Below, in pieces: positions 32,177 through 38,100 of a stretch of DNA of 63,180 nucleotides; position 1 is the stretch's first letter, and each line of letters opens with the position of its first letter. The stretch is taken from contig DASWIE010000059.1 in NCBI GenBank assembly GCA_036397815.1, forward strand, positions 1 through 63,180, written 5' to 3'. Both the position numbers and the translations under genes were made by a program. Source of the DNA: Candidatus Limnocylindria bacterium. GTDB lineage: Bacteria; Chloroflexota; Limnocylindria; QHBO01. Below the pieces are notes generated by a model. That model did no database searches, was not told the origin of the DNA, and was given only the letters and a program-made list of their open reading frames with translations.

Positions 32177-32536
32177 CTAGCGGAGGCCCGAGACGAGGGT
32201 GAACGCGAGCAATGGCGCGACCAGCAGCCCCATCGTGGCGGCCAGCAGGTACCAGTCGCGCGCGGCGCGGGGATCGGCGACGCCACGCCGCAGGAGGCCG
32301 CCTGTCCAGGCCAGCACGGCGGAGAGCCCGGCCACATACAGCCCCGCGGCGAGCAGCACGACGCCCACCGCGAACGGGCGGACGCGCTCGCACGAGCCGA
32401 AGGCGAGCGGCCCGCCGGCTGGGCAGGCAGCGGACAGCTCTGCCACCACCAGCGCGCCGGCGGCGAGCAGGACGGCGACCGACCAGGCGAGGTGGACGAG
32501 CAGGCGGCGGGAGATCTCGGCGTCCGGCGGGGTCAG
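32177..32536 (-). CDS. Hypothetical membrane protein, last gene of the Rieske/cyt b operon; probable CTG start
   Basis: Three hydrophobic helices and a Cys pair in a loop (AACPAGG...GSCER). The in-frame CTG overlaps the upstream TGA (CTGA). Start is inferred. Confidence 0.55.
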   Translation of the reverse strand: MTPPDAEISRRLLVHLAWSVAVLLAAGALVVAELSAACPAGGPLAFGSCERVRPFAVGVVLLAAGLYVAGLSAVLAWTGGLLRRGVADPRAARDWYLLAATMGLLVAPLLAFTLVSGLR

Positions 32537-33114
32537 CCGCCGGACGACCAGGCGGCGCCGGCGGCAGCGGCCGCTTCCGCCTCGCGCCGCGTCACGCGCC
32601 GATACTCGAACCACAGGTAGACGCAGGCCATGGCGCCCATGCCGGCTGCGGCCACTCCCAGGGCCAACGCCCGGAGCGGGAAGGCGGGCGGGATGATCGA
32701 TCCGCCGGCCAGGTTGAAGACCATGAATGGGATGAGCACCAGCACGGTGAGGAGGTACAGGAGGAAGGCGAGATACCGGATCAACGACCAGAAGAAGCCT
32801 CGCCGTCCGCGCGCGGCCTGGATCCACACGATCAGGATGACGATAAGCACGAAGTTGGTGCCGCCCACGACGTTCGAGACCAGGAAGCCCACGTCCTTGC
32901 TGAACTTGAGCACGTAGAGCGTCACGGCGTAATAGGCGTAGTTCGGGATGTAGAAGATCAGGAAGTACATGAACAGGAAGAGGGGCACGCCCTTCAGGAG
33001 GGCCACCACCCAGGTCTCGTAGCCGAAGAGCAGCCAGTTCATGAAGTCCTCGACGTCGCGCGCGGCGCGCACGACCAGGCCCCGGCGCGGTGGACTCAGG
33101 TAGGTGCTCGTCAT
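32533..33114 (-). CDS. Hypothetical polytopic membrane protein in the Rieske/cyt b operon
   Basis: About four aromatic-rich TM helices; 7 nt downstream of the cytochrome c gene. Confidence 0.8.
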   Translation of the reverse strand: MTSTYLSPPRRGLVVRAARDVEDFMNWLLFGYETWVVALLKGVPLFLFMYFLIFYIPNYAYYAVTLYVLKFSKDVGFLVSNVVGGTNFVLIVILIVWIQAARGRRGFFWSLIRYLAFLLYLLTVLVLIPFMVFNLAGGSIIPPAFPLRALALGVAAAGMGAMACVYLWFEYRRVTRREAEAAAAAGAAWSSGG

Positions 33115-33121
33115 CGCTGCC

Positions 33122-34171
33122 CTACTGCTTCTGGGTCAAGAGGAAGGTGATGAGGGCCTGTAGCGCATCGTCACTGATCTTGCCCTCGGGATGGACGGGC
33201 ATGCCGGTCGCCTGCCCGTCGTTGTAGTTCGTGGCGGAGTCGCGAATCCACAGCTCCAGCATGTTGCGCGCGTCGGCCTCGTAGTCGGCCACCAGCTTGT
33301 CGAGCTGGCTGATCGGCGTCGGGAGGTCGGTGACGGGCTCGTTGCCGACGTTGAGCAGGCTCGGAGCGATGTCGGTGCCGGCCAGGTCGGCGCCGTGGCA
33401 CCCGCCGCAGCCAGCCGAGGCGTAGACCTGCGCACCGTCCTCGGGCGTATTCGACACCGGAGGCTGTGACTGGCTGGCCGCTTCCTCCGCCCAGCTGGTG
33501 ATCAGCGCGCTGAGGGCGGCGATCTGCTCCACCGTCAGCGGCCCGCCCACGTCGGTGCTCCAGGCGGGCATCGGTGAGTTGACGTCGCCGGAGACGACGA
33601 CGCCTCCGTAGCTGATCACGAGCCTGACGTAATCGGCGTTGACCTTGAGCTTCGCGGCGATCGACGCGCTGTGCAGGTTCGGCGCGAGGCGGCCGGTATT
33701 GCCGACCGGGCCGCCCTCGCCGGTCGCCCCATGGCAGCGCGCGCAGTTGGCGGCGGCGTCGCTGAGCGCCTCCGGCCCGACCGTCACCGAGAGCGTGCCA
33801 CCGCTGCTGGCGGTCGCCTCGAACGTGCCTTCGGTGATGTAGCGGTGCGTCGAGTTGGCGGCGGCCTTGATCGGCAGCTCGAACGTCTCCCTGCCCGTCC
33901 CGCTCACGACCACGTCCCCGCCGGTGTCGTTGAAGAAGCGTACGGTGCCGTTGACGGGGATCTCGACCTCGGCCGGATCGATGGTGCCAGCCGTCATGTG
34001 CACTTCGACGACGACGGTGTCCGGGCCGAAGATCTGCTCCCCGAAGGAGAGCAGCTCCTCCTGCTGGGCGGCGAAGGCCGCGTCGCGGCGGCTCGCATCG
34101 GTCAGCCAATAGAGGCCGGTGAAGAAGGCCATGGCGATGATGAGGAAGACGCCGAGCGTCTTGAGGCGCAT
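33122..34171 (-). CDS. Membrane-anchored diheme cytochrome c with an inserted beta-rich domain
   Basis: N-terminal TM; CARCH and CGGCH, each with a downstream MP axial Met; about 80-aa insert between GEQIF and the first CxxCH. Confidence 0.9.
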   Translation of the reverse strand: MRLKTLGVFLIIAMAFFTGLYWLTDASRRDAAFAAQQEELLSFGEQIFGPDTVVVEVHMTAGTIDPAEVEIPVNGTVRFFNDTGGDVVVSGTGRETFELPIKAAANSTHRYITEGTFEATASSGGTLSVTVGPEALSDAAANCARCHGATGEGGPVGNTGRLAPNLHSASIAAKLKVNADYVRLVISYGGVVVSGDVNSPMPAWSTDVGGPLTVEQIAALSALITSWAEEAASQSQPPVSNTPEDGAQVYASAGCGGCHGADLAGTDIAPSLLNVGNEPVTDLPTPISQLDKLVADYEADARNMLELWIRDSATNYNDGQATGMPVHPEGKISDDALQALITFLLTQKQ

Positions 34172-34174
34172 CAG

Positions 34175-34780
34175 TCAGCCCGCGCAGTGGGGCATCTGGT
34201 CGGGGGTGCGCGTGTCGAAGGTTTCGGTGCCAATCGGCGGGCCGTCCACGATCGCGCTCGTGTCGACCACGTACACGCCATCCTCGATGGTGAAGTCGAA
34301 GTGGTCCATGCCGCGCGGAGCCGGCCCGTCGCGCTTCTCGCCGAGCACGGTGTACTTGCTGCCGTGGCACAGGCATTCGAACCATTTGCTGGCGTCGCAC
34401 AGCTGCGGGATCTGGCAGCCGAGGTGCGGACACTTGCGGTAGAGGGCCAGGACCTGGTCGCCTGGATCCGCCACCTCGGTGCCGGCCCCCTCCACGTACC
34501 CTTCGGCCGCCGGGATGTTGACGATGAAGAGGCGGGCCTTGTTGTAGATGAACGGCAGCCCCCGCGGCCACTCCGGCTCCAGCGCGGCGATGTCCGCCGC
34601 GCTGCCGATCGCCAGCTTGCCGCCCAGCCCTGAGCGTACGTTCGGCCACAGGAAGGCGAGCGAGCCGGCGAGGAACTCGAGCGACAGCAGGCCGACGCCG
34701 ATGCCGACCACGCGTCGCATGAAGGAACGCCGGCTCATCTCGCCGACGGGCGGCCCGTGAACCTCCCCGTAGGGCTGCAT
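34175..34780 (-). CDS. qcrA: Rieske iron-sulfur subunit of a quinol:cytochrome c oxidoreductase
   Basis: Tat motif SRRSF plus TM; KCPHLGC; CLCHGSKY; GPAPRGM. Confidence 0.93.
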   Translation of the reverse strand: MQPYGEVHGPPVGEMSRRSFMRRVVGIGVGLLSLEFLAGSLAFLWPNVRSGLGGKLAIGSAADIAALEPEWPRGLPFIYNKARLFIVNIPAAEGYVEGAGTEVADPGDQVLALYRKCPHLGCQIPQLCDASKWFECLCHGSKYTVLGEKRDGPAPRGMDHFDFTIEDGVYVVDTSAIVDGPPIGTETFDTRTPDQMPHCAG

Positions 34781-34782
34781 GC

Positions 34783-35397
34783 TCACAGCGTGAAGAAGAT
34801 CCCGTCCCACGGCCAGACCCAGTTCCAGCCCGGGCCGCGGAAGAAGGAACCGATGAAGGTCACGATCAGGCCCCCGACCATGAGGCACATGAAGAAGACC
34901 CAGGCCAGCTTGCGGTCGTGGGTGGCCCGGTACGGCGATCGGTCGAGGTACGGGATCAGGGCGATGCCGATGAAGTAGAGCGGCATGAACAGGATGCCGA
35001 CCACGGTCGCGTTGAAGTACGAGAGCATCTCCTGCAGGCCGAGGAAGTACCACGGTGCCTTGGCCACGTGCGGGGTCACGCCGGCGTTCGCCATGTCCTC
35101 CAGCGGCGCCTGGATCAGGAATGAGGTGACGATCAGCACGATGGTCATCAGCGAGGCCATCACGAACTCGGCGCGCAGCAGGTGAGGCCAGGTGAGGACG
35201 GTCTCATCGGGGCGCTTGTCGACGCGGACCATCGACTCCTGCTTGACATAGGCCAGCAGCCGGAAGCGCTCGGTGCCCGGCACGCCGGGCGGGCCCGGCA
35301 GCTTCGGGCCGACGCCGCGCTCGACGAGCGGGACGCCGGGCGCCTGGGTCGGAACGTTCTTGTCGGCGGTGGCGTTCGGCCGCTTCTCGATCGTCAT
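34783..35397 (-). CDS. Split cytochrome b C-terminal subunit (subunit IV/PetD/QcrC-like)
   Basis: TWPHLL, KAPWYFLGLQEML (PEWY variant) and IPYLDRS. Confidence 0.9.
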   Translation of the reverse strand: MTIEKRPNATADKNVPTQAPGVPLVERGVGPKLPGPPGVPGTERFRLLAYVKQESMVRVDKRPDETVLTWPHLLRAEFVMASLMTIVLIVTSFLIQAPLEDMANAGVTPHVAKAPWYFLGLQEMLSYFNATVVGILFMPLYFIGIALIPYLDRSPYRATHDRKLAWVFFMCLMVGGLIVTFIGSFFRGPGWNWVWPWDGIFFTL

Positions 35398-35410: not shown

Positions 35411-36130
35411 TCAGACTGGGCCCGAGATGCCGCCGTCCTTCCGGATCCGCCAGAAGTGGACGACGATCAGGATGGCGGCGAGAAGGGGGAATGCGATCAC
35501 GTGAAGGACGTAGAACCGGATCAGGGTGCCCTGTCCCACCTCGATCCCGCCCAGCAGCACGAAGGCTGACTGAGTGTCGACGAGCGGCGCATAGGTCGCC
35601 ATCTGGGTGCCGACCGTGATCGCCCAGAACGCGATCTGGTCCCATGGCAGCAGGTAGCCGGTGAAGCTCAGGGCCAGGGTCATGAACAGGAGCAGGGAGC
35701 CGATCGCCCAGTTGAACTCGCGCGGCGGCTTGTAGGCGCCGTGGTAGAAGACCCGGATCATGTGCAGGAAGACGGTCAGCACCATCAGGTGCGCCGCCCA
35801 GCGATGCATGTTGCGGATGAGCGAGCCGAAGGCGACCGAGTTCTCGATGGTCTGGATGTCCTGGAAGGCGCGCGTGACCGACGGAACGTAGAAGAACATC
35901 AGGTAGACGCCGGTCACCGTCAGCGCCAGGAACAGGAAGAAGCTGATCCCGCCCAGGCAGAAGGTGTAGGTGTAGCGGATGGCGTGCTTCTTGACCCGCA
36001 CCGGGTGCAGGTGCAGGAAGACGTTGTTCATGACCGCCAGCGCGCGGGTGCGGCTGGTCGTGGGATAGGGCTGACGGAACAGGCTTCTCCACAGCTGGGA
36101 CTCGATCACGAGCCGCCACAGGAAGCTCAT
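35411..36130 (-). CDS. qcrB: Cytochrome b6-type subunit
   Basis: TFCLGG (heme ci Cys), RNMHRWAAH, FLHMIRVF, RE.NW, GYLLPWDQ and FYVLH...VHF. Confidence 0.95.
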   Translation of the reverse strand: MSFLWRLVIESQLWRSLFRQPYPTTSRTRALAVMNNVFLHLHPVRVKKHAIRYTYTFCLGGISFFLFLALTVTGVYLMFFYVPSVTRAFQDIQTIENSVAFGSLIRNMHRWAAHLMVLTVFLHMIRVFYHGAYKPPREFNWAIGSLLLFMTLALSFTGYLLPWDQIAFWAITVGTQMATYAPLVDTQSAFVLLGGIEVGQGTLIRFYVLHVIAFPLLAAILIVVHFWRIRKDGGISGPV

Positions 36131-38100
36131 CGGTCCACCGCCGGTCCGGCCTGCTGGCCGACCTGCCCCAGCACGTTGTCCTTGTAACTCTCCAAGAGCA
36201 CCTTCCCGTCGGGCGTGAACCGCTCCAGCTCGAGCCGGTCCATCGTGATGCAGTTGGTTGGACACCGCTCGACGCAGAGGTTGCAGCGGATGCAACGCTC
36301 CTCGTCGATGATCATTGCGATCCCGCGCGGCCACGACTGGAAGAGATCGATCTCCGGATCGTCGCCGCCGACCTGCGCCTTGTCGACCATGTAGATGACG
36401 CCTTCAGGGCAGACGTCGGCGCAGAGCCCGCACAGGATACAGCGCGGCCCGTCGATGTTGATGTTGTGGTTGCACTGCAGGCAGCGCGCCCCTTCGGCGA
36501 TCGCACTGCGCGTGTCGTAGCCGACCTCCACCAGGCTGGTGAAGTCGCGGCGCAGCTCCGGCGGCGCCATCGGGATGTGCTGGCGCTCGGTCGCCTCGTA
36601 GGCCCACGGCATGTCGTGGTCGAGCGCCTGGGTGATGGTGGCGCGGTTGATGACCGGCAGCTCCTCCAGCTCGTCGCCGCGGACACCCGCCAGCCAGCGG
36701 TCGACGGCGCGCGCGGTCCGCCGGCCCCGACCCGCGGCCTCGATGATGGTGGCGGGCCCGGTCACGAAGTCGCCGCACGCGAAGATGCCGTCCACGTTGG
36801 TCTGGAACGTATCCGGGTTGGTGACGACCAGCCCCCGGTTCAGCTCGAACGTGAGCGCGTTGTAGGGCTTCCCATCCGGGCTCGCGGGAGTCGTCCCGTT
36901 GAGCGGCGGGGTGCGCCAGGATGAGACCGATCCACCGGGCACGATCTCGCGGGTGTCCGTCACGCCGAGGTGGCGATTGAGCTTAGAGCCGTACTCGCCG
37001 AGCACGTTGTTGTCCGACGCCTGGCTGGTGCACGGAATGACCATGTCGCACGGAATCGTGAACTCGCTGCCCGGGATCGGCTCCGGCGAGCGGCGGCCGC
37101 TTGCGTCCGGCGGGCCGAGCTTCACGCGCTGGAAGACCATGCCGGTCACCTTGCCGCGCTCGTCGCCGAGCACCTCGACCGGGGACGCGAAGAGCTCGAA
37201 GCGCACGCCCTCGAAGCGGGTCTCGTGCTGCTCCTCCTCGTCGACCACCATCTCCTCCGGGCCACGGCGATAGCAGATCACCGAGGTCTTGGCCCCGAGC
37301 CGGAGCGCGGTGCGCGACGAGTCCATCGCCGTGTAGCCGCCACCCACGATCACCACGTGGTCGCCGACCCACTGCTCCTCGCCGAGGTTCGCCTTCTTGA
37401 GGAAGTCGACGCCGTAGATCACGCCGTCCAGCTCCTCGCCGGGGACGTTCATGGCGACCGGATACATGCAGCCGGCGGAGACGACCACCGCGTCAAACCG
37501 CTCGCGCAGCTGGTCGATGGTGATGTCGCGGCCAATCTCGACGTTGTAGTGGAACTCGACCCCGTGCTTGGCGACCCAGTTCACGTCCAGCTCGATCACG
37601 TCGCGCGGCAGCCGGAAGGCCGGGACCCCGATCAGGCACGTGCCGCCGCCCGACGGGAGCGCCTCGTAGAGGTGCACCTCGTGGCCGTCGGCGGCCAGCT
37701 CCTTGGCGGCCGACAGGCCGGCCGGTCCGGCACCGATAACCGCGACGCTCTTGCCGGTCGCGGCGGCGACTACGATGTTGTCCGGCATGTTGTTGCCGTA
37801 GTGCCAGTCCACCAGGAAGCGCTTCATGGCCCGGATGGCGAGCGGCTTGTCGATGTCGGCGCGGCGGCAGGCCTTCTCACACGGCGCCGAGCAGACGTAG
37901 CCGCAGATCGCCGCGACCGGGTTCGGGTCTCGGGCCAGGATGTAGCCCTCCTCGAAGCGTCCCTCGGCGGCGAGCATCAGGTAGCCGCGGCAGTTGGTGT
38001 TGACCGGGCAGCCTTCCTGGCACTCGATGTTGCACTGGAGCCAGTCGACGCCGACCTCGGCGGTCTGGAACCTCAGCGGGATCGCGTTCTCGGTGATCAC
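36127..38100 (-). CDS. NAD(P)H/FAD oxidoreductase of the GltD/NfnB/SudA/DsrL superfamily with C-terminal 2x[4Fe-4S] ferredoxin
   Basis: CQEGCP, CGYVCSAPCEKACRR, GAGPAG, GGGYTAMD, YRR, FACGD, EGARCLQC, CILCGLCADVCP and CIRCNLCVERCP; ATGA overlap with cytochrome b. Confidence 0.9.
   Translation of the reverse strand: MITENAIPLRFQTAEVGVDWLQCNIECQEGCPVNTNCRGYLMLAAEGRFEEGYILARDPNPVAAICGYVCSAPCEKACRRADIDKPLAIRAMKRFLVDWHYGNNMPDNIVVAAATGKSVAVIGAGPAGLSAAKELAADGHEVHLYEALPSGGGTCLIGVPAFRLPRDVIELDVNWVAKHGVEFHYNVEIGRDITIDQLRERFDAVVVSAGCMYPVAMNVPGEELDGVIYGVDFLKKANLGEEQWVGDHVVIVGGGYTAMDSSRTALRLGAKTSVICYRRGPEEMVVDEEEQHETRFEGVRFELFASPVEVLGDERGKVTGMVFQRVKLGPPDASGRRSPEPIPGSEFTIPCDMVIPCTSQASDNNVLGEYGSKLNRHLGVTDTREIVPGGSVSSWRTPPLNGTTPASPDGKPYNALTFELNRGLVVTNPDTFQTNVDGIFACGDFVTGPATIIEAAGRGRRTARAVDRWLAGVRGDELEELPVINRATITQALDHDMPWAYEATERQHIPMAPPELRRDFTSLVEVGYDTRSAIAEGARCLQCNHNINIDGPRCILCGLCADVCPEGVIYMVDKAQVGGDDPEIDLFQSWPRGIAMIIDEERCIRCNLCVERCPTNCITMDRLELERFTPDGKVLLESYKDNVLGQVGQQAGPAVDR

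Follow-up and report, generated by a model that had tools for sequence, protein, structure and literature searches.

A predicted cupredoxin-fold domain without copper ligands, apparently nested in the first haem domain of a dihaem cytochrome c from a Limnocylindria Rieske/cytochrome b operon

The window analysed here, that is the whole stretch of 63,180 nucleotides (contig DASWIE010000059.1, assembly GCA_036397815.1) from an uncultured soil bacterium of the Limnocylindria (Chloroflexota), carries on its minus strand an operon for a complex III-like enzyme, a b6-type Rieske/cytochrome b complex. The last redox subunit encoded in this operon with split cytochrome b is a membrane-anchored dihaem cytochrome c of 349 amino acids (aa), which was identified as an open reading frame (ORF; 33122..34171) matching Pfam PF00034. 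In this protein, a block of 82 residues, D51 to G132 (33776..34021), lies between the helix read as α1 of the first haem domain and the haem-binding motif. As judged from structure prediction and alignments, the block has the fold of a cupredoxin, is devoid of the four ligands of a type-1 copper centre and very probably lies within the cytochrome c fold and not ahead of it. Orthologues encoded in an identical operon lack exactly these 82 residues, which bears out the domain insertion proposed in a preliminary description of this DNA. We favour the reading that the insert is a redox-inert accessory module of the complex.

The inserted block and its place in the cytochrome c fold

The window protein would consist, from the N-terminus, of a membrane anchor, a stalk helix ending in α1, the 82-residue cupredoxin domain, a linker, the first CxxCH motif with the rest of haem domain 1, and haem domain 2 (all parts on the minus strand). 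The transmembrane anchor (aa 5–23; 34103..34159) is the hydrophobic stretch LGVFLIIAMAFFTGLYWLT, which is modelled by AlphaFold2 (AF2) as helix 3–24. It is followed by a second predicted helix (aa 26–48; 34028..34096), whose conserved end L40-x3-G44-x3-F48 is read as helix α1 of haem domain 1; an alignment of 56 sequences shows no variation at L40 and G44 and at least 90% conservation at F48. Downstream of the insert, the linker P133–N142 (PEALSDAAAN; 33746..33775), as delimited by the alignments, leads to the first haem-binding motif C143-A-R-C-H147 (33731..33745). The rest of haem domain 1 (aa 148–236; 33464..33730) contains invariant columns and matches its Pfam profile from position 9 on. 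Haem domain 2 (aa 237–349; 33125..33463), for which AF2 models helices, has a canonical helix 1 (G246-x3-Y250) and the second haem motif C255-G-G-C-H259 (33395-33409), and PF00034 aligns its residues 244–347 with profile positions 2–89. Both haem motifs are invariant in the 56 sequences, as are M201 (SPMPAW) and M324 (TGMP); following the usual class I pattern, M201 is the likely sixth haem ligand of domain 1. On the whole protein, PF00034 scores 59.4 bits in two stretches (cutoff 21.3) and PF13442 scores 49.9 bits, while haem domain 1 alone obtains 27.9–34.5 bits with PF00034. The whole-protein AF2 model, calculated from the 56-sequence alignment, has a mean predicted local distance difference test (pLDDT) score of 82.7 and comprises the two N-terminal helices, nine strands over residues 54–131 and two helical haem domains; residues 132–143 are modelled as coil, with a pLDDT of ~61 in the linker.

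A database search for relatives of this protein, the nearest named ones being metagenome-assembled genomes (MAGs) labelled Candidatus Limnocylindria or Chloroflexota, returned orthologues of two length classes, namely long forms of 349–370 aa and short forms of 266–283 aa. Upon alignment, a single block, D51–G132, separates the one class from the other. The window protein reads ...LLSFGEQIFGP-D51...G132-PEALSDAAANCARCH, and the long forms in general follow the pattern ...[FY]G.x.F-GP-D51...G132-PEALxxxxANCxxCH, whereas the short forms read ...YGEEVF-GP-PTPENPAT-ANCxxCH. According to the alignments, the linker PEALSDAAAN equals in length the Pro-rich loop PTPENPATAN of the short forms. The insert measures 82–93 aa across clades whose haem domains share 46–80% identity, and it is no assembly artefact, since over 50 independent contigs and MAGs carry it with the reading frame intact.

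These data largely agree with the preliminary description, which had located a block between the GEQIFG helix and the NCARCH motif of this minus-strand ORF, at 33776–34018 and thus 3 nt different from the boundaries used here, and had suggested a search for orthologues with and without it; the sequence reads as described, and both kinds of orthologue exist. The description had further noted that the block is bounded by similar GPD and GPE sequences. These are present, and at the protein level G-P is indeed kept on both flanks, as P50 and P133 are each found in 51/53 long forms. The DNA repeat, by contrast, carries little weight. The flanking codons GGCCCGGA and GGGCCGGA match at 7/8 bases, and since the two strands of the window, which has 70% GC, together contain 14 copies of the degenerate 8-mer GG[CG]CCGGA, the repeat is weak evidence by itself.

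In the short forms, the loop from F48 to the Cys comprises 12–14 residues and varies in length and sequence between clades, as might be the case if the segment between the G-P codons on either side had been deleted several times independently. Some short forms of genus g2 (P0120 / L033) read F-K-P-(D/A)-D-P-(A/Q)-F-P-D-R-A-G-C, and MAFFT placed the D-P-A of P0120 against the D-P-A of the insert's second strand. This match could be the scar of an imprecise deletion, or it could be due to chance.

In the compact class I cytochrome c fold, CxxCH normally comes right after helix 1. In domain 2 of the window protein, helix 1 lies 5 residues before Cys255, and Pfam cytochrome c profiles match this domain from position 1–2. 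Domain 1 is matched from position 8–12 only, in the long and in the short forms, and hence is without a helix 1 immediately ahead of its CxxCH. The distance from the end of the GxxxF helix to the haem motif of domain 1 amounts to 94 residues in the long forms as compared to 12–14 in the short forms; 38 further genome-derived proteins show the helix pattern [FY]-[GA]-x3-[FY]. Dihaem cytochromes of an Anaerolineales outgroup, two of which adjoin a Rieske gene, possess the same N-terminal anchor and helix, and here the helix is contiguous with the haem motif (...AIEVGAGLF-AANCARCHG and ...DEAMTLY-AENCAVCHG). Because the outgroup helix runs without a gap to NCxxCH, homology identifies the GxxxF segment as helix 1. 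Sequence comparison thus indicates that the Limnocylindria family opened a Pro-rich loop of 8–10 residues between helix 1 and CxxCH, and that the long forms hold the cupredoxin at this place.

Alternatively, the beta domain might precede the cytochrome c fold; that is, helix 26–48 would be a stalk only, and domain 1 would either do without helix 1 or use the GPEAL linker instead. In keeping with this idea, a local hhalign comparison of domain 1 with domain 2 aligned the linker (V-G-P-E-A-L...C), and not GxxxF, with helix 1 of domain 2, and L136 is conserved in 52/53 long forms. As a further caveat, the whole-protein model has a predicted template modelling (pTM) score of only 0.54, and how helix 26–48 packs on domain 1 is as putative as the way in which the insert is oriented. 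However, the short forms have no GPEAL yet keep [FY]-[GA]-x3-[FY], the outgroup motif is contiguous with NCxxCH, and the linker is modelled as coil. The hhalign result can be discounted, as a local alignment penalises the long gap. A domain preceding the fold therefore appears rather improbable to us, and an insert that interrupts the cytochrome c fold very probable; the profile starts and the gapless outgroup helix agree on this point with the preliminary description, for which a block lying ahead of the fold would have been fatal.

Fold, descent and loss of the copper site

An AF2 model of the insert alone, based on 14 diverse inserts, contains nine strands and reaches a pLDDT of 91.4 and a pTM of 0.79. 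When this model was compared to the PDB with Foldseek, all of the 50 best matches were cupredoxins (probability 1.00, TM-scores 0.63–0.83), including FtrB (8vuk, 0.83), the N-terminal domain of EfeO (7wgu, 0.82), pseudoazurin (0.81), Cupredoxin_1 (4hcf, 0.76) and plastocyanin (0.73). The whole-protein model gave the same ranking. The insert is thus predicted to adopt the Greek-key beta sandwich of cupredoxins, and the resemblance noted in the preliminary description is borne out by the AF2 and Foldseek analyses that it had called for.

At the sequence level, the relationship is more distant. The insert alone matches no Pfam family at E-values up to 10, copper-binding families included, and the same holds for the insert in four long forms. 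Searching the PDB with a profile of the insert, the three best sequence matches were plastocyanin, Cupredoxin_1 and NirK, with E ~0.1 each. Within its own genome, the sole other match of the profile is a blue copper protein of 215 aa (E 0.018 in the genome search; 8.7e-5 by hhalign), which is recognised by the Pfam family Copper-bind with 3e-11 and 44 bits. When the search was extended to 176 genomes of the family, the profile hit outside the cytochrome only two anchored blue copper proteins, both with intact H-C-H-M ligands. Insert and blue copper proteins share the pattern F.P..i.V..G.TV.F.N.d. Judged by these similarities, the insert goes back to a type-1 blue copper protein such as the lineage encodes in several copies. 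The 215-aa protein itself (genome G000, contig C52, L016:1441-2088, minus strand) has an unusual make-up, as it combines a SHOCT domain and membrane segments with a C-terminal plastocyanin-type copper domain.

Free-standing relatives of the insert were not found: in a set of 5.8 billion proteins, a profile search of candidates of 47–149 aa yielded as the sole match a fragment of a long form, and among the best 150 matches of a whole-protein phmmer search of 1.84 billion representatives, no match outside the family was confined to the insert. A foreign origin of the insert was considered on the basis of base composition and rejected, since its GC content (67.5% versus 68.9%) and its GC content at third codon positions (92.7% versus 92.9%) equal those of the rest of the gene.

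To locate the former ligand positions, two genuine blue copper proteins from the window genome served as references in an alignment of the inserts; one of the two is encoded at window positions 22578-23228. In this alignment, the first His of the type-1 site corresponds to V87 (V/Q/I/L across the long forms), the Cys to A121 (A/S/V/T) and the Met to a residue other than Met, while the second His falls into a three-residue deletion. All four ligand positions being lost, there would be no copper site, and the metal-free character proposed in the preliminary description thus appears correct with respect to copper. The absence of Cys from the insert, also noted there, extends from the window protein to the 52 other long forms; among these 53 inserts, no His or Met column exceeds 14/53. 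The insert consequently falls outside the definition of a type-1 blue copper domain both by its ligands (His-Cys-His-Met) and by the Pfam profiles PF00127 and PF13473, and a blue copper centre is excluded as far as sequence can tell. The most conserved positions are D51, V57, N74, F79, N81, G93, F97, G115, V129, G132 and P133, and most of these are residues that determine the fold. N74 (window position 33950) is part of an N74-[GAS]-[TS] motif in ~51/53 long forms, and N81-x-T is also frequent; such N-x-S/T motifs may reflect only strand composition.

Could the insert bind a metal through other residues? Candidate ligands would be the acidic position 86, N74 and N81, or a His95 that occurs in some clades, and the domain might then serve in redox reactions or metal handling, e.g. 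in copper delivery to an oxidase. Position 86 is indeed Asp or Glu in 46/53 inserts, and the closest structural matches include FtrB and the cupredoxin-like domain of EfeO, which we take to be parts of iron-uptake systems. However, position 86 aligns with the Pro before the first His and not with a ligand, the ligand loop is three residues shorter, and the sparse His and Met columns, the missing Cys and the lack of any Pfam match, copper-binding families included, all speak against it. A non-canonical metal site in the insert is hence unlikely, and a metal-dependent function of this sort would be a decidedly long shot.

Still less credible is a derivation of the anchor and the cupredoxin from subunit II of a caa3-type oxidase, in which membrane helices, a CuA cupredoxin and cytochrome c follow one another. 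The linear order is the same, and 2yev_B (caa3 subunit II) is among the Foldseek matches of the whole model. Yet the insert is a minimal cupredoxin of 82 aa whose best matches in structure and sequence are type-1 blue copper proteins, it has neither Cys nor a conserved His, and it is preceded by one membrane helix rather than two. Moreover, orthologues and outgroups share the anchor and the helix without having any cupredoxin, and the gene resides in a Rieske/cytochrome b operon.

Distribution, selection and probable role of the insert

In one family of the class, all genomes sampled (66/66) contain the cytochrome family, as against 0/134 genomes of four other families (E 1e-20). The insert profile was found in 25/176 genomes of this family, distributed over genera g1, which includes the window genome (3/3), g47 (1/1), g9 (1/1), g4 (17/18) and g2 (3/29); in the other 19 genera it is absent (0). 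The window protein nests among short forms of genera g12, g14 and g16, with which its haem domains share 70–80% identity. A maximum-likelihood tree of the cytochrome calculated without the insert columns needs three changes of state, at least two of which are forced by well-supported branches, and with five neighbouring genes (1959 columns) the count rises to four, three of them forced; both trees are unrooted with weak deep branches, and the changes may be gains or losses.

In comparisons across clades, no part of the protein is less conserved than the insert, which shows 30–45% identity as compared to 46–80% for the haem domains. A recent lateral transfer of the insert was therefore rejected, the flanking parts being the more similar ones whichever two clades are compared. 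The ratio of nonsynonymous to synonymous substitution rates (dN/dS; Nei-Gojobori method, five close long forms) is 0.20–0.54 in the insert and 0.14–0.24 in the rest of the gene. Thus, the insert is under purifying selection, relaxed two- to three-fold relative to the remaining gene; not every orthologue has it, and selection keeps it where it occurs.

How may such a domain have been accommodated, and what could it do? We propose that an ancestral blue copper domain lost its four copper ligands together with three residues of the ligand loop, which would leave no blue copper centre and most likely a redox-inert domain. In cupredoxins, the N- and C-termini lie together at the end opposite the copper site. 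The insert can therefore sit in a loop, its former copper end facing away from the host domain. This loop immediately precedes the haem attachment site of domain 1, the haem domain nearer to the anchor, which resembles the Rieske-proximal domain D2 of QcrC. Most likely, then, the insert would be an exposed, folded accessory module, either giving shape or stability to the extracytoplasmic head of the complex or providing a partner with a site of contact. Since most relatives run the same operon without the insert, it is dispensable for core electron transfer. All in all, we consider an accessory module that is redox-inert, exposed at the surface and structural or docking in function the most probable explanation, albeit by no means a firm one.

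Several observations weigh against this interpretation. No conserved polar surface patch was seen in the 53 inserts, the conserved residues being D51, N74 and N81 besides a majority of Gly, Pro and hydrophobic residues. Blue copper genes, i.e. conceivable partners, occur in 56/71 family genomes, in those with long and with short forms alike. Finally, repeated loss is what one would equally expect if the domain did little or nothing. Indeed, the insert might have been captured once, have lost its copper site and have remained functionless ever since, persisting for want of a clean deletion and exposed to selection only against misfolding. The patchy distribution, with at least three events of gain or loss and both forms inside genus g2, would be expected in this case, as would the missing surface patch, the status of the insert as fastest-evolving part of the protein and a dN/dS two to three times that of the haem domains. 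It is harder to reconcile with a dN/dS that still lies well below 1 (0.2–0.54), with a length and a confidently predicted fold that are kept across clades differing by ~50% elsewhere, and with the retention of the insert by 17/18 genomes of g4. We therefore regard a domain without function as a serious but clearly less probable alternative to an accessory module.

A more specific variant of the accessory module, in line with the docking role for a cupredoxin or oxidase partner put forward in the preliminary description, is a docking or tethering element beside the Rieske-proximal haem, which would hold an acceptor, either an anchored blue copper protein or the CuA domain of an oxidase, at the complex. 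If true, this would be an undescribed way of wiring a complex III-type enzyme. It presupposes a cell without an outer membrane to confine a soluble carrier, which we assume here, and we consider it an unlikely, though attractive, refinement. A correlation between genes for blue copper proteins and the insert was looked for and rejected, as these genes occur with or without the insert. Blue copper genes are numerous in the family and often found ~8–10 kb from the operon (e.g. in genomes G012, G024, G084, G090, G054, G048 and G129). In the window, the gene at 22578-23228 on the plus strand, ~10 kb from the operon, encodes a blue copper lipoprotein with an LAAC motif resembling a lipobox and with intact His-Cys-His-Met ligands.

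Known counterparts and the operon

The nearest solved relatives of the cytochrome are actinobacterial QcrC subunits (7q21_C, 6adq_C, 6hwh_M, 7e1v_O), retrieved with an E-value of 6e-5 using the single sequence and 2e-8 using a profile. Like QcrC, the window protein is a membrane-anchored subunit that unites two cytochrome c domains of class I and is encoded beside Rieske and cytochrome b genes, and it shares with domain 2 of QcrC the motif NCAxCH..G.GG...G..APNL. However, the anchor is N-terminal here and C-terminal in QcrC, the domain order is apparently swapped, domain 1 corresponding to QcrC D2 and domain 2 to QcrC D1, and cytochrome b is split. The subunit thus works like QcrC without being a strict member of this family. 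The swapped haem domains and the opposite anchor suggest that the dihaem subunit was assembled independently or arose by permutation. To our knowledge, QcrC has no nested beta domain.

Type-1 blue copper proteins such as plastocyanin, pseudoazurin, amicyanin, auracyanin and the lineage's own anchored copies have the same fold as that predicted for the insert (TM-scores 0.63–0.83), but differ in that the insert lacks all four ligands, has a ligand loop shorter by three residues and is nested in another protein rather than being free or tethered. The classic case of a copper-less cupredoxin domain inside a respiratory complex is CyoA of the cytochrome bo3 quinol oxidase. CyoA, the N-terminal domain of EfeO (7wgu) and FtrB (8vuk) likewise employ the cupredoxin fold as a scaffold after the copper centre was lost or changed. 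Unlike the insert, these are terminal domains or whole proteins of oxidases or iron-uptake systems, none of them inserted in a cytochrome c, and no sequence similarity was detected between the insert and CyoA, EfeO or FtrB. A cupredoxin and a class I cytochrome c are also joined in one polypeptide in caa3 subunit II (2yev_B) and in NirK of Thermus scotoductus (6hbe), the latter of which turned up in both the insert-only and the whole-model Foldseek search. Those proteins are end-to-end fusions in which both domains are redox-active, whereas the domain described here is nested and predicted to lack a metal site. An architecture of this kind, with a cupredoxin placed between helix 1 and CxxCH, is described neither in the part of the full-text literature covered by our search nor among the solved structures matched.

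A folded domain nested before CxxCH shows that the cytochrome c fold and haem attachment tolerate a detour of 90 residues, and the insert is a clear case of a redox fold reused after loss of its metal site inside a respiratory complex. As the same operon exists with and without the domain in sister lineages, and even within one genus, it offers a natural comparison of what an accessory domain contributes to complex III-type enzymes. Practical use of these findings is limited, as the organisms are uncultured and any function of the insert is hypothetical.

The minus-strand operon encodes, in this order, a flavoprotein, a cytochrome b6-like part, a subunit IV-like part, the Rieske protein, the dihaem cytochrome c and a protein of 193 aa. 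Where the loci reach far enough, long and short forms of the cytochrome share a common neighbourhood, consisting of a PBP gene and the genes for the flavoprotein, cytochrome b, subunit IV, the Rieske protein, the dihaem cytochrome and the 193-aa protein. Because this neighbourhood is the same with or without the insert, long and short forms are orthologues and not paralogues. The operon is headed by the gene for an NAD(P)/FAD and [4Fe-4S] flavoprotein of 657 aa (36127..38100; Pfam Fer4_20, Pyr_redox_2 and Fer4_7, with a 2x[4Fe-4S] domain), which is the most conserved gene of the cluster (83–90% identity across the family). Its stop codon overlaps the proposed start codon of the cytochrome b6-like N-terminal part (239 aa; 35411..36130; PF00033), the start being read at MSFLW as chosen from the ORF translation; the orthologues of this part have 239–248 aa. 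It is followed by the subunit IV-like C-terminal part of cytochrome b (34783..35397; PF00032) and by the Rieske iron-sulfur subunit (34175..34780; PF00355), whose start, read as MQPYGEV..., gives a protein of 201 aa. The Rieske orthologue of the nearest relatives was called at the same length, and the gene is a conserved neighbour in the fetched loci that cover its site. In one genome of genus g3 (G009, L053:7002-8159, minus strand), the C-terminal part of the Rieske protein and the cytochrome c are found in one open frame of 385 aa, which represents either a genuine fusion or an assembly frameshift. Downstream of the cytochrome c gene, at a distance of 7 nt, lies the gene for the multi-pass membrane protein of 193 aa (32533..33114), for which no Pfam family was found. 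A homologue of it with 45–75% identity adjoins the cytochrome c gene in 40/40 fetched loci of the family, and the protein may be an extra subunit of the complex.

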